Assembly: GCA_964016885.1 (NCBI GenBank)
Contig: OZ024749.1
Coordinates: forward strand, 35,836,001 to 35,900,000
Length of the DNA: 64,000 bases
Direction: 5' to 3'
Source of the DNA: Eledone cirrhosa
Taxonomy: Eukaryota
This document shows, in pieces, positions 5,143 through 59,972 of the stretch (its first letter is position 1; the number at the start of each line of letters is the position of its first letter). The translations under genes were made by a program, and so were the position numbers. The notes below the pieces were generated by a model that made no database searches, was not told the DNA's origin, and saw nothing but the letters and a program-made list of their open reading frames with translations.

Positions 5143-5980
5143 CACACACCCATGCTAGCGTGGAAGATGGACATTAAACGATGATGATGATATATATATA
5201 TATATCCGCATATATATATACAAATGCTTATATATATACATATATATATATATCCACACATACTTATGTTTATATATATATATTTATAATTATACACATG
5301 CACACACACACAGGCACACACACACACACGCACATATATATATATATATATATATATAGTATGTGTGAAAATAAATATTGCTTGTACCACTAACCAAGAC
5401 ACAAGGCTGTGAACTTACAAATAACATTTTAATACAATAATAACATCTAACCTCACCTGCCCTCACTACCACAATAACACACAGTCACACTGCCATACCA
5501 CTAGCCTACCATCTTCCACCTCTAATAATAGCCTCAGACACCAAATAAATTTACACACTTCACATTTATATTGATGAGATATCCAACAAATCTGCTCTGT
5601 TTCTCACCATCTCATATCGACTTCAATTACGTCATTTTCAATAAATCTATGGCCGACAGTTCGACAGTTAGAAAAAGAGTTGTTTTTGCCCTCATCACTA
5701 ATTAATTATGTCTAGAAGATTATTGAACAAAGTCAGCAACAATTATTAAAGTGGAAATTTTAATTATAAAATTTTCCAATTCCAAGAGTTTTCATTTACA
5801 ATCCAGTCTTTAGAAATATTTACTTCAGTTAGTAGAGGTTAATCTCTCATATCTTATTTCTATAATGTATAAAGAATGTATTGTTTTATATATTCACAAA
5901 CACATACACACACAAACATATATATATATATACACATACAATATATTAACAAATGGAAACTATATTTATAAAACCATATT

Positions 5981-6046
5981 TATTTTATTATACATATTTC
6001 AAGGGCCACCAAGGCAAATTATGGTGCGCCTTCATCAGATAAAATA
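5981..6046 (-). ncRNA. Type I hammerhead ribozyme motif (Penelope-like element type)
   Basis: Minus strand reads TATTTTAT-CTGATGA-AGGCGCACCA(loop)TGGTGGCCCTT-GAAA-TATGTA-TA-ATAAAATA. It has an intact CUGAUGA/GAAA core, an 8-bp stem I, a stem II, a self-complementary stem III (AUAUGUAU with G-U pairs) and an AUA cleavage triplet. Confidence 0.75.
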
Positions 6047-6300
6047 CAATACAGATTTGTTTTATAAATAAATATTGACATACCCTGAAAAAAGACAACC
6101 TTAACGGTTGGAGCTTCCTGGATAGTGCTTTATATCAGTTATAAAAATGTTTAAGCTTGTTGAATCCCAACAAATTAAATATAACCTCTGCATATATATA
6201 TATATATATAATGGAAAAATTTGAACAGGGACAAAACAGAGAGGCAGTACAACGAATGTTTATTAATTTCACACTCTGGAGAGTGAGGTGTTGGTGGGGG

Positions 6301-50958: not shown

Positions 50959-51390
50959 TTAACCCTTTCCTTACCATATTTCTAATGAAATACACTGCCT
51001 ATGATTTTCAAATAATTTTGATCATAATCAAGAATTTCAAGGGATTTAGTAATATAACTAACTTTCTCATCCTTAAGCTGCTGTTTGGAACATAACTTAA
51101 TAAAGGATTTTACATAAAATTATAATCGAAGATTTTTGATAAATATAATATGGAAGTTTGTTAGATGAATATGTTGCCATGTGTATCTGATTTAGAGTAG
51201 GTACACCATATTCCTACTTGTCATAAGGGCATCCAGCTGTGAAACAGAAAGTCTTGTCTAACCCATGACAGCATGGAAACATTGGCGTAAACGCAATGAT
51301 GGTGATAATGATGATAAGCACTTTAAAATAAACAGTTTTGAATCACAGAGCCAGAAGCAGTTTCAGGCGGTTTTGTATCAAAACAGTTAA
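50959..51390. mobile_element. MITE2 interrupted by an RTE-tail repeat
   Basis: TTAACCCTTTCCTTACC start and GTATCAAAACAGTTAA end, with an internal insert ending in (ATG)n near 51315. Confidence 0.7.
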
Positions 51391-52119
51391 TTTTAGATGT
51401 TTACAAATAACTCAAATTTTATCAGATGACAGATTTACTTGGTGATGTACATGATCATAAATCTATGGATTTCTTGCTCACAACTTAATTGTAATTTTAT
51501 GACTGCATTTGCATTTTTTTTATTTTGCTATTGCTGGAAGAAGGGGTTATGCGCATGGGATTGATATGGTTAGTGTTTAGCTTAAATTGTTACTGCATGT
51601 CGACTCAGAAAAGATGTATTGGGAAGAGAGAATTCTAGAGGAAAAAAGTTTTTCAATGAATGACTGGACGTAGAGGTTAGTGGAAGGTCTGGTATGTTTG
51701 ACACAATATGGGTGGTGAGAGGAGGAGATAAGTGTGGAAGTAACTAAGTAAGGTAAAAATGACAGAGTGGATGCAGAAATGCCTGAGTGAAGGTAGAGGC
51801 AGAAATGATTGAGTGAAGGCATAAATGACTGAGTAGGGACAGAAACAACTGAACGGAGACAGAAATGATTGAGTGGAAGCAGAAATAACTGAGTAGATAT
51901 AGAAATTCCTGACCGAAGGAAAAAATGACTGTGTGAAGGCTTAAATGACTGAGTGGAAGCAGAAATGACTGAGTGGAGGCAGAAATGAGTGAGTGGAGGC
52001 ATAAGTAAGATAATGACTGAAGAAAAATTTAGAAAAAAAAGAATATGGAACAAAATTCCCAAAAAAAAATAGCTGCAAAATGTGATTTAAAAAACACAGA
52101 AGAGAAGTGAGGAAGACAG

Positions 52120-53770: not shown

Positions 53771-54246
53771 TGTGTTATTAATACATGACTGTGTTATGTA
53801 TTGAGTTAAGTGAAGCAATGCTGGTAAGTAATTCCCAGCTATGGTACATCAATCAATATACAAACACTAAATAAAATGACTGAGACTAGAAAGGAATGAA
53901 TTCATTTATGTAATATTCTGTTGATTACATATATTGATTAGGGAGCTATTAGCCAGGAATCACTTATCAATCAGTTATAAGTAATTGATACACTGTCATT
54001 GTCATTTCTGGGTAAATATTTGAGATATTTGAACAGTGAAATATGTGCTTATATATATGCATTTATATGTATGTATATCTGTATATATCAGTATATATAT
54101 ATGTATATATATATATATATATGTAGGAGGTGAGTTTTATTGTAGCACAATAAAGCAATGCAAATATCGGATAAGAAGCACTCTACAGTTTGTAGGACTG
54201 GAGTATAAATAATATAAGCTCAAAAGATGGTTAAAAGAGTTCCATG

Positions 54247-54317
54247 TATTTTATTATGCGCATTTCAAAAACAAATATCATCATGGGATGATATTTGCGT
54301 TCTCATCAGATAAAATA
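54247..54317 (-). ncRNA. Type I hammerhead ribozyme motif (mirror copy)
   Basis: Reverse complement of 54404-54474 with one substitution at the base of stem II. Confidence 0.8.
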
Positions 54318-54403
54318 GGGAGACATGATATGAAGCTTAAAAAACACTTGCGAGCAGTGACGTGTTGATTTAAGTGTTTTTTAAGCTTCATATCATGTCT
54401 CCC

Positions 54404-54474
54404 TATTTTATCTGATGAGAACTCAAATATCATCCCATGATGATATTTGTTTTTGAAATGCGCATAATAAAATA
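54404..54474 (+). ncRNA. Type I hammerhead ribozyme motif
   Basis: TATTTTAT-CTGATGA-GAACT-CAAATATCATC-CCAT-GATGATATTTG-TTTTT-GAAA-TGCGCA-TA-ATAAAATA. 8-bp stem I, perfect 11-bp helix in stem II, palindromic stem III ATGCGCAT. Confidence 0.8.
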
Positions 54475-54502
54475 CATGGAACTCTTTTAACCATTTTTTG
54501 AT

Positions 54503-54583
<81 letters not shown>

Positions 54584-54925: not shown

Positions 54926-55455
54926 AATAATAATTTGTCTTTGATTTTGTTCCTTAGTTGAAATATTATATACAAAGACTGATGCAGAATCATAAAATAA
55001 AAGATTATAACAATAATAATCTAACTTATTTTTAAGTTTTGTTTCTTTGTAATGCTTCATTATAAATATTTGTTGCCACATTTCAAATGAAAAGCACGGC
55101 CTTTGAAAATAATTAAGAATTTTCCAGAATTATTACACTGGTGTTTAGAATATAACTTAACAAAGGTTCTTACATAAAATTATCATGGGAGGTTTTTAGA
55201 CAAATATAAAAACTTTAACCCTTTTGTAACCATATTTCCAATGAAAGATACTGCCTGTAGTAGTTTTCAAATAATTTTGAAAAATCATCAAGTATTTGGC
55301 AGGATTTAGTAATATAATAATGTTCTCATTATTAATCTGGTGGTTGGAATATAACTTAACAATGGAATGTTTTCAGATAAATATGTATGTATGGCCCTGT
55401 AACTCCTAATGGAGTCATAGAGGTGCCATAGCAGTACATAGCATTTTTGGGTATT

Positions 55456-55682
55456 TTAACCCTTTAGCATTTAAACCGGCCGTATCCGGCCAGAATTCTC
55501 TCACCTCTTTCTGTTCAAACAAGCTGTAACTGACCACTCATACTAATGTTAAGGTATTGTTCTCAAAATAATTAATATCAAAATCCCAGATTCGATATTA
55601 TGTGAGATAATTGTGTAAGATAAAGATTTTACCACAAAAATACAATAGTAAATATAGAGTAATGTAAATGCTAAAGGGTTAA
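55456..55682. mobile_element. piggyBac-like MITE1
   Basis: Same TIRs and TTAA at both ends. Confidence 0.9.
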
Positions 55683-56509
55683 AACCTGGTGGAGCCTATA
55701 TCCGCTCCAGGTTAGATAAATATAAATTCTTTAAAATATAACAAAGAACATGAAATCACAGAAGTGGTTTCATGTGGTTTGGTATCCAAAGGGTTAAATA
55801 TGCTATTAGACCCATGCAAGCATGATGATGATGATGATGATGATTAATTTGGAGTACATGTTGTAATTAAACAATCAGATATTATGAAATTGGATTCAAG
55901 GTAATCACCAAAGACTTTTACTTTCTGAGAATATCAGAAAAATTCAACCATGAAATTGTTTCAATTCATGTGTATAAAAAGATCTTAAACAATTAAAAAA
56001 TACTTGAGTTCAAACGAAACCAATCCACAAGGATTCCTGGGAGATACTATTACCATTTTACTCAAGTAGTTTAGTATTCCATGTAATAATATGGTGCCAG
56101 ACTTTGGTGTTTAATAATATGAATACTTTCCCAGCTATATATGTTTTCATTGACGTCAACACTGTTAATTCTATTTGCCTCAGTTTTTATTCTTTGTTTT
56201 CTTGTTTTTGTGTTATATTTATTTATTTCTCTGTTCTCCCTCATCGTTACATGGACCAGTTTTATTCTCCCCATTCTAATGGAGATTTTCAAATGAAATA
56301 TTTCCATATTACCAACTTCCTAACTCAATAAACTCTAACCAAGAAGAAAGTAAAATGAAGACGTGTTGATACAGCAAACTTTTGGCAGTGGGGGATGGAT
56401 GGCTGTGTGAAAGATTTTATTATTCCAAATCTGTCTCGATCTTAACTTGTCTGATATTTATGAAATATGTTACTATAGCTACTAATTCAAAGAAACAATG
56501 CTGACTAAT

Positions 56510-56737: not shown

Positions 56738-56821
56738 CTGAATGTAGTTCTGTAGTATCAACTTCTGTTAATACTTTAACCTGCAGTCAATACTTGGTTC
56801 CATAGTACTAAACTGTTTGTT

Positions 56822-57050
56822 TTAACCCTTTAGCATTTAAACTGGTCATATCCAGCCAGAATTCTCTCACCTCTTTCAATTCAAACCAGCTGTAACTGGT
56901 CGTTCATACTTATGTTAAGGTATTGTTCTCAAAATAAATAATATCAAAATCTCATAGATTCGATATAATGTGAGATAACTATGTGAGGTAAAGCCTTTAC
57001 TGTGAAAATATAATAGTAAATATAGAGTAATGTAAATACTAAAGGGTTAA
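56822..57050. mobile_element. piggyBac-like MITE1
   Basis: Same TIRs (one mismatch) and TTAA at both ends. Confidence 0.9.
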
Positions 57051-57476
57051 AGTGTTTATATGCAACTGAAAACCTGAAAACCTCCCATCATAATTTTTTA
57101 TAAGAACCTTTATTAAAGCATATTCCAAACACCAAAATCTTAACATTCAGTAATGATTTAGCAAAAAATATCTCAACACTGTACCAGCACCCCTATAACA
57201 GCACCCTTGTAATAGCACCACTGTAATAACACCACTGTAACACCACTGTAACAGCACTGTAACATTGTGCTATCTAAAGGTGCCATTAGCTGTTTGTACA
57301 GCATCACAATGGTTGTACTTTGCCATCCATTAACCAATCAACCATGACAAACAATGTAGAACCACCAGACTGTAAAAGAACCATTCATAACACATTTCCT
57401 TCTTTACCAAATCTGATTCTAACAGCATTCTACCATTTCAGTATGTTGACTCTACTGTACATGTATATATAGGTGC

Positions 57477-57510
<34 letters not shown>

Positions 57511-58046
57511 TTGTGTTTACTCTGCAGTATGTGTGTATATATATGTCTGTTAACTCTGTAGTATGAGCGTATATATATATATATATATATATGTTTTTAC
57601 TCTATTGTATGTGTGTATACATGTGTCTATTAACTCTACAGTACATATGTCTATACACATATATATATATATGTGTGTGTGTTTACTCTATTGTATATGT
57701 CATATACTTTTTATGTATGTGTGTGTGTTGTATATGTGTGTATATGTTTGTTGAGGTGTGAATTAGTGTGTATGTGTGGTTGTATGTATGTATGTATATG
57801 TAAGTGTATATATGTGTATGACTGTATATATGTGTATGTGGGAGTGTACATATATGTATGTAAGTGTGTATATGTAAGTGTGTACATGTAAATGAGAGTA
57901 TGTAAATGTGTATATGGCAGCAGCAACAATAACAACAACAGCAGTGTAGAAATGAAATAAAATGAAATCCACAGTTCACAACAATGTAGTTTTAGTTGGC
58001 TTCCTAGTAATTTACATCTCATAAGATATGGGGCCCTGGTCCTAAA

Positions 58047-58552
58047 ATGTTGTTACGGTTCACACCTATATAGATTAAGCTGGTCTCCTACAAGGTTGTA
58101 CCTGATAGGAGGTTTCTTGGGTATTTTGATGATAGGGGTCACAGTCGTTTCATGTTGTTATGGTTCACACCTATATAGATTAAGCTGGTCTCCTACAAGG
58201 TTGTACCTGATAGGAGGTTTCTTGGGTATTTTGATGATAGGGGTCACAGTCGTTTCATGTTGTTATGGTTCACACCTATATAGATTAAGCTGGTCTCCTA
58301 CAAGGTTGTACCTGATAGGAGGTTTCTTGGGTATTTTGATGATAGGGGTCACAGTCGTTTCATGTTGTTATGGTTCACACCTATATAGATTAAGCTGGTC
58401 TCCTACAAGGTTGTACCTGATAGGAGGTTTCTTGGGTATTTTGATGATAGGGGTCACAGTCGTTTCATGTTGTTACGGTTCCCACCTATGTAGTTTAACT
58501 GGCCTCCTACAAGATTGCAAATCAGAAGGTTTCTTGGGTATTTTAATGGTAG
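58047..58552. repeat. 105-bp tandem repeat, about 4.7 copies
   Basis: Near-identical units, reflected as a 35-aa repeat in the ORF track. Confidence 0.95.
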
Positions 58553-58556
58553 GAAA

Positions 58557-59710: not shown

Positions 59711-59972
59711 TTAACCCTTTGATACCAAACTGTCAGAAACCACCCCTGGTTCTACGATACAAAACTGTTTATTTTAAAGTGTTTATATTTTATATTTATC
59801 TAAAAACTTTCAATCATAATTCTCTCTCAAAAACTTCAATATGTTCAAAAAAACCAGATTAGAAATAAGAAAGTTATATTACTATATCCTTCAAAATTCT
59901 TGATTATTTTCAAAATTATTTGAAAATCATAGACAGTGTCTTTCATTAGAAATATGGTAATGAAAGTGTTAA
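59711..59972. mobile_element. piggyBac-like MITE2
   Basis: TTAACCCTTTGATACC...GGTAATGAAAGTGTTAA, followed by a partial tandem copy. Confidence 0.75.

Follow-up and report, generated by a model that had tools for sequence, protein, structure and literature searches.

What is an inverted repeat that carries a complete hammerhead motif on each of its strands? The question is raised by a fold-back in a 64,000-nucleotide stretch of the Eledone cirrhosa genome (hereafter the window), which the original prediction had read as a non-coding, ambisense ribozyme unit. The analysis leads to a different answer: the feature is very probably a non-coding, 5′-truncated insertion of a Hydra-like Penelope-like element (PLE), in which two hammerhead-bearing ends lie head to head in (TA)n, likely as the outcome of both nicked target strands priming reverse transcription on the RNA of one source element.

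Inverted-repeat comparison confirms a fold-back with 138-nt arms (54212-54349 and 54372-54509), a 22-nt spacer and three mismatches (54423/54298, 54495/54226 and 54502/54219). The insertion itself spans 54123-54505 and is longer than the inverted repeat, with the left copy continuing to 54123 (Table 1). Specifically, a tail of approximately 89 nt is found on the left copy and is absent from the right copy, while 17 of the 22 spacer nucleotides are element sequence of the left copy, the right copy beginning at about 54363. The right copy does not contain a 17-nt, AA-flanked stretch after 54373, which is retained at another locus (L146) with the same joint, and it stops at reference position +100, as most tail-minus copies do. 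The whole insertion is predicted to fold at -232.9 kcal/mol and single arms at -16 to -18 kcal/mol, in keeping with the strong read-through hairpin that had been expected. The three arm mismatches were also considered as proof of two templates; this was rejected, as two of the variants occur at low frequency in the family (5/118 and 8/118 arms, in a sample biased towards the right arm).

Table 1. Coordinates of the fold-back insertion, its hammerhead motifs and its flanks in the window.
Feature	Position	Strand	Basis or detail
(TA)n-rich left flank, putative target site	54091..54122	.	Window sequence
Left copy: 5′-truncated pLTR and tail (tail-plus end), Hydra-like Penelope element	54123..54366	-	96% identity over 246 nt to the 5′ pLTR and tail of near-full-length L088
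Tail of ~89 nt, left arm only; lies between pLTR and ORF start in full-length copies	54123..54211	-	Family copies
Type I hammerhead (mirror copy)	54247..54317	-	Core C3 54309; predicted cut between 54255 and 54254
Head-to-head joint: TGTT microhomology common to both copies, then GATTTAA	54363..54373	.	Window sequence compared with family copies
Right copy: pLTR running from close to the 5′ end common in the family to a tail-minus end	54363..54505	+	95% identity to L088 pLTR
Type I hammerhead	54404..54474	+	Core C3 54412; predicted cut between 54466 and 54467
(TA)n right flank, putative target site	54506..54538	.	Window sequence; any target duplication is indistinguishable within (TA)n

The two hammerheads point outward, one per arm, and both contain the CUGANGA, GAAA and NUH core elements together with three stems. 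In the plus-strand motif, stem I is formed by 54404-54411 and 54467-54474 (8 bp), CUGAUGA occupies 54412-54418, stem II 54419-54454 (36 nt) and GAAA 54455-54458, and the palindromic stem III, AUGCGCAU, extends over 54458-54465. A hammerhead descriptor finds three matches in the window (the two fold-back motifs and one near 6038) and none in any of 30 simulated windows of the same dinucleotide make-up. Additionally, in twelve related motifs from several families of the same genome, 10 of 19 pairs in stems I and II change on both sides, a value reached by 0/500 shuffles; kin sequences can beat shuffles, so this is taken as support and not as a probability. The predicted architecture, namely an outward type I hammerhead per arm with an 8-bp stem I, a long stem II and a palindromic stem III, is confirmed. 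When hammerheads of several families are aligned, the fourth nucleotide of stem II (column 19; window 54422) is almost always an unpaired C, although the motifs otherwise covary. Stem II is closed by G10.1-U11.1 rather than by the canonical G-C pair. Decay of the window copy was considered as the source of U11.1 and rejected, because U11.1 is present in 117 of 118 family arms and is therefore a family trait. In Rfam, no gathering-level match to the window feature was obtained, and the 20 weak matches, which are miRNA-type hairpin models on the fold-back, include no hammerhead model. The third window hammerhead (5981-6046, minus strand) belongs to another PLE-like family, differs in stem II, has AUAUGUAU as stem III, and sits in a short island (about 5940-6190) between (TA)n tracts. 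Elsewhere in the window are dispersed repeats in inverted and direct orientation that are 86-90% alike (50959-51064 and 59867-59972; 55454-55683 and 56820-57051), likely representing another mobile family, as well as a 105-bp tandem array (58030-58554) and a 20-bp tandem array (51750-52050).

The source of the arms is traced through their copies in the 3.0-Gb host genome, where the arm is a high-copy repeat: all 40 scored candidates (of 195) match at 94-100%, and exact matches to a 28-nt hammerhead pattern number 2,175. All five loci with long upstream homology run into an ORF with motifs of a reverse transcriptase (RT) and endonuclease-like motifs, and an inverted partner accompanies each of them. 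Twelve stretches picked for long ORFs include full-length pLTR-ORF-3′UTR-pLTR units of about 3.7 kb. Three of them (L080, L082 and L083) are full units of a sister subfamily (89-92% identity) with an ORF of about 810 aa, and a fourth (L088) is a full unit of the window's own subfamily (94-96% identity) with a broken ORF; in these four, pLTRs stand in partial tandem around the ORF, with the hammerhead in the pLTR. Judged by identity to these copies and full-length parents, both fold-back arms are truncated pLTR ends of this abundant family, and the proposed origin in PLE pLTRs is borne out.

The parent ORF encodes 809 aa and shares YRDDG with all 41 aligned sequences. In a structure model of the protein (mean pLDDT 84.7), the best fold matches are telomerase RTs (ranks 1, 2 and 4-8), and the parent is an autonomous RT-encoding family whose single ORF has a telomerase-like RT. 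Pfam detects neither RT nor GIY-YIG in the parent ORF, and PDB sequence searches with it return no match. Pfam GIY-YIG is found in 3 of the 41 aligned homologs, the parent ORF not being among them; a LIY-x11-YFG motif lies at residue 688, PF01541 occurs in 11% of the members of the atlas neighbours of residues 660-809, and a minority of the members of the protein's atlas neighbours bear GIY-YIG and RVT_1 families. In PMC8557442, the Hydra clade of C-terminal EN+ PLEs is defined by DKT, RWK, CxCX5C and CxxC/CxH motifs and by the lack of CCHH. The parent protein has DKT at 132, CxCX5C at 668, CxxC at 768 and CxH at 796, with no CCHH, whereas RWT replaces RWK in this copy (RWK is present in 26 of the 41 aligned sequences). 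By motifs and not by a tree, the family is assigned as a Penelope-like retrotransposon with Hydra-clade features. It shares with that clade, which includes Hydra-1_Obim and Penelope-13_HM, the DKT motif, a CxCX5C linker, a CxxC and a CxH flanking the conserved E and N, the apparent lack of CCHH, (TA)n as target and the presence of a hammerhead; Penelope-13_HM also has an inverted 5′ copy, and the U before GAAA recurs in Hydra-1/2_aJap. It differs from the clade in unit length (about 3.7 kb as against mostly <3 kb), and the window hammerhead sequence is unlike the one listed for Hydra-1_oBim. In the L082 protein, residues 593-664 are modelled as a disordered Asn/Ser/Thr-rich linker between RT and endonuclease, and N-rich inserts are described for rotifer PLEs in PMC3846280. 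A fragment of a different PLE (L032:9344-9901, minus strand) has a Pfam GIY-YIG match (E 0.0004) and a Cys-rich linker.

Head-to-head pairing with a one-sided tail is the norm in this family. The first 100 hammerhead-pattern matches on contig C1 include 18 neighbours no more than 10 kb apart, compared with 0.57 expected, and these comprise 15 head-to-head, 3 tandem and no tail-to-tail pairs, the head-to-head spacings ranging from 124 to 6,310 bp. A set of 70 loci, which covers roughly the first 80 of those matches, gave 64 regions after merging. A head-to-head joint is found in 44 of these regions, which agrees with the inverted arrangement of PLE ends foreseen for the locus; 20 regions have no inverted partner within the fetched DNA, and two tail-to-tail neighbours were seen. 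Both outer ends could be assigned for 38 of the 50 joints; 11 have one end elsewhere and 1 is cut by the limits of the DNA covered. The 38 classed joints divide into 34 tail-plus/tail-minus, 4 minus/minus and 0 plus/plus (p 6e-7). ORFs that stand beside family copies at L031:1346-2325 and L035:783-3068 are presumably Helitron helicase pieces.

The 3′ ends of these copies cluster at reference positions +100 and +176 from the core, which correspond to two fixed sites about 89 nt apart; at +176 the alignment stops about 10 nt too early, because the reference tail carries a small deletion. A common 5′ end is seen at -68 to -71 (21 of 93 5′ ends). It falls on the A of TCATATG, which precedes the hammerhead core by 69 nt, and this clustering occurs despite 21 ATAT sites in the 1 kb upstream. 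On the outer side, (TA)n follows 43 of 46 tail-plus ends and 61 of 76 tail-minus ends. Hammerhead cleavage was considered as the origin of the template 5′ ends and rejected, since the cut site, +55, is not the start of any of the 17 short arms (the nearest starts at +50). Twin hairpins as the basis of the two 3′ ends received no support from single-sequence folds of four stretches, a weak test (z-scores -0.6 to 0.7). At one locus (L016), the opening 17-18 nt of the common 5′ end are present as a fivefold tandem repeat upstream of the pLTR, and such repeats also occur in L132, L140 and L141, which suggests repeated template jumps at the RNA 5′ end.

Whether the palindrome itself is multicopy had been posed as a check, and the answer depends on the level considered. 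At 842 loci the centre is perfect: both arms begin at -69 and share ATAT as their overlap. A further 201 loci have a variant with two extra bases, so that stereotyped fold-backs of about 415 bp number at least 1,043 genome-wide; the exact window junction is single-copy in the genome. The centre of the window's fold-back equals the standard form minus two microhomology-flanked stretches, and its shorter joint pattern has 6 genome occurrences, 5 of them in the family, with different flanks and variants. The relatives are therefore neither all single arms, which would have marked a one-off inverted insertion, nor one multicopy unit; the fold-back is a recurrent insertion product. To characterize the palindromes, we sampled 35, consisting of the first 15 of the 201 (L131-L145) and 20 of the first 21 of the 842 (L152-L171), one locus being passed over because it already belonged to the analysed set. 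Of the 35, 31 have tail-plus/tail-minus ends and 24 retain both hammerhead cores intact. In 60 of 60 comparisons an arm is closer to its partner than to the median other arm, and in 41 of them the partner is nearest or tied; moreover, 15 of 21 private variants seen in exactly two arms are common to one locus, against 1.5% expected. Tail-plus and tail-minus arms are not told apart by any variant (best p 0.18). In a second set, 27 of 32 pairs have a partner arm nearer than the median. Because the arms of one locus share private variants in this sample, each fold-back likely arose at its own insertion and not as the copy of a master, although arm conversion after insertion could be an alternative source of such variants.

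We propose that each nicked target strand would prime one cDNA on RNA from one source element, with the tail-plus site as the start for one strand and the tail-minus site for the other. The two cDNAs would run towards the RNA 5′ end, likely the transcript start, where their 3′ ends would pair via a short self-complementary stretch (ATAT in the standard form, TGTT in the window) and be repaired into a palindrome. Related steps are described for the PLE Poseidon PAc of Anolis (PMC11167929), whose protein, a predicted dimer, nicks and extends both strands of AT-rich DNA in vitro and uses two internal RNA start sites bounding the tail. PAc resembles the window family in these two start sites, in its AT-rich targets and in that no read ends at the hammerhead cut site, hammerhead cleavage not being needed. 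PAc belongs to another clade, however, its hammerhead overlaps the ORF start whereas that of the window family lies about 270 nt upstream, and the in vitro data are those of PAc alone. A more specific version, which we offer as a tentative model with less than an even chance of being right, is that a dimeric PLE protein copies one short pLTR RNA twice: both target strands would be primed at the two internal sites about 89 nt apart, the second cDNA would displace the first, both would run off at the fixed start 69 nt before the core, and the ATAT ends would anneal.

The strongest competitor accepts the same family and the same by-product status and differs in the second arm, which would arise by snap-back, a single cDNA folding on its 3′-end palindrome and copying itself. 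Self-priming of this kind is proposed for rotifer PLEs in PMC3846280, and it would account for the perfect centres at the 842 and 201 loci and for the private variants common to the arms of one locus; with subsequent hairpin-tip deletions it would also fit the window's fold-back, whose centre is derivable from the standard palindrome by two microhomology deletions. However, each arm holds sequence that its partner lacks in 24 of the 34 tail-plus/tail-minus pairs, so that neither arm is a copy of the other, and the arms at three loci (L038, L064 and L100) do not overlap at all. Snap-back alone also leaves unexplained why the second arm stops at one fixed site, and we consider it unlikely as the general route. 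In the mixed pairs, the tail-minus arm extends further 5′ than the tail-plus arm in 24 of 34, a hand count in which short tail-minus arms are harder to detect.

Copying of the whole fold-back from masters by the PLE protein, as a retrozyme-like or MITE-like non-autonomous mobile unit, is considerably less probable. Such a unit would be in line with more than 1,000 loci that share a near-identical centre and size, with the occurrence of the window's TGTT joint at 4 other family loci and with the frequently intact pairs of hammerhead cores, and the 4 minus/minus pairs could be second-round copies. Yet the exact window junction is single-copy, partner arms are so often nearest or tied, no variant marks the tail-plus against the tail-minus arms, and both outer ends are precise initiation-type ends. 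The ambisense unit of the original prediction is not supported, on similar grounds: its arms are truncated ends of an autonomous RT-encoding family, the spacing of family pairs varies widely, and the more than 1,000 common-centre fold-backs look independently built. Its retrozyme-like alternative meets a further difficulty. Non-LTR retrozymes share with the window feature a non-coding nature, a type I hammerhead and a relation to PLEs; in PMC7229834 and bioRxiv 10.64898/2026.07.22.740005, they are defined by head-to-tail tandem repeats of units that each carry a hammerhead and are released as monomers or circles, whereas the window locus has a head-to-head arrangement with one sense hammerhead per strand, and its arm matches only the inverted partner within the window, no head-to-tail monomer tandem being present at the locus.

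Slightly less probable again is a host-kept function, either as a source of hairpin RNA for Dicer or ADAR or as a divergent ribozyme-terminated promoter unit. Read-through RNA would fold into a 138-bp duplex, and with more than 1,000 such loci some are presumably transcribed. Against this, the window arms have drifted by 2.2%, inside the range of other pairs (0-7.9%), and an ADAR scar was rejected for want of A-to-G skew: A/G changes make up 12 of 86 between-arm differences in the sampled palindromes, and 0/118 arms carry four or more A>G or T>C changes. As for the ribozymes, we conclude that the hammerheads are passengers in the fold-back insertion. Read-through RNA makes the antisense arm first, so that the ribozyme would likely be trapped in the hairpin as it emerges, and with the two motifs on opposite strands no hammerhead dimer should form within one RNA; metazoan PLE hammerheads cleave poorly even as dimers, according to PMC4209133. 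Palindromes beside microsatellites are difficult to assemble, but an assembly artefact is hardly credible here, as the arms are unequal in length and differ at 3 sites, the asymmetric centre bears a microhomology typical of the family, independent loci have the same joint, and the family as a whole follows the one-sided tail rule.

The layout of the window locus is itself already published (PMC8557442, PMC3846280 and PMC4209133). The first describes an inverted 5′-truncated copy with a one-sided tail as typical of EN+ PLEs, the second inverted pLTRs with palindromes at the joint, for which self-priming is proposed, and the third dual minimal hammerheads 100-700 bp apart on opposite strands, the very arrangement seen at the locus. 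Like these inverted-pLTR EN+ insertions (PMC8557442; Pen2a_Av, PMC3846280), the window locus has a 5′-truncated inverted copy beside a pLTR, a tail at one end only, a palindrome or overlap at the inverted joint and a hammerhead in the pLTR. It differs in a tail of about 89 nt rather than 30-40 nt and in a fold-back form stereotyped at more than 1,000 loci; moreover, both window arms are reduced to the pLTR, so that no ORF is left, unlike in the published insertions. With the metazoan minimal type I hammerheads of PMC4209133, the window motifs share the type I core, a long helix II and a small palindromic helix III, and they are set apart by a stem I of 8 bp, by the conserved unpaired C in their stem II of 36 nt and by the lack of the G10.1-C11.1 closing pair, which is described there as highly conserved. 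A literature search on Penelope-like twin priming with inverted copies returned matches on other subjects only, most subscription papers lying outside its scope.

The window locus is a dead stub in a known layout, and the family statistics matter more than the locus itself. How PLEs build their inverted repeats and tails is named as an open question in PMC8557442, and the more than 1,000 fold-backs form a natural archive of insertions, with defined start and end points and with arms from the same source, against which an in vitro Hydra system could be checked. Such fold-backs also constitute a large potential source of dsRNA. If the double copying of one RNA is true, it would explain the more than 1,000 stereotyped one-tail palindromes with same-source arms and would answer how inverted pLTRs form in PLEs, with hammerhead cleavage playing no role in making the template.
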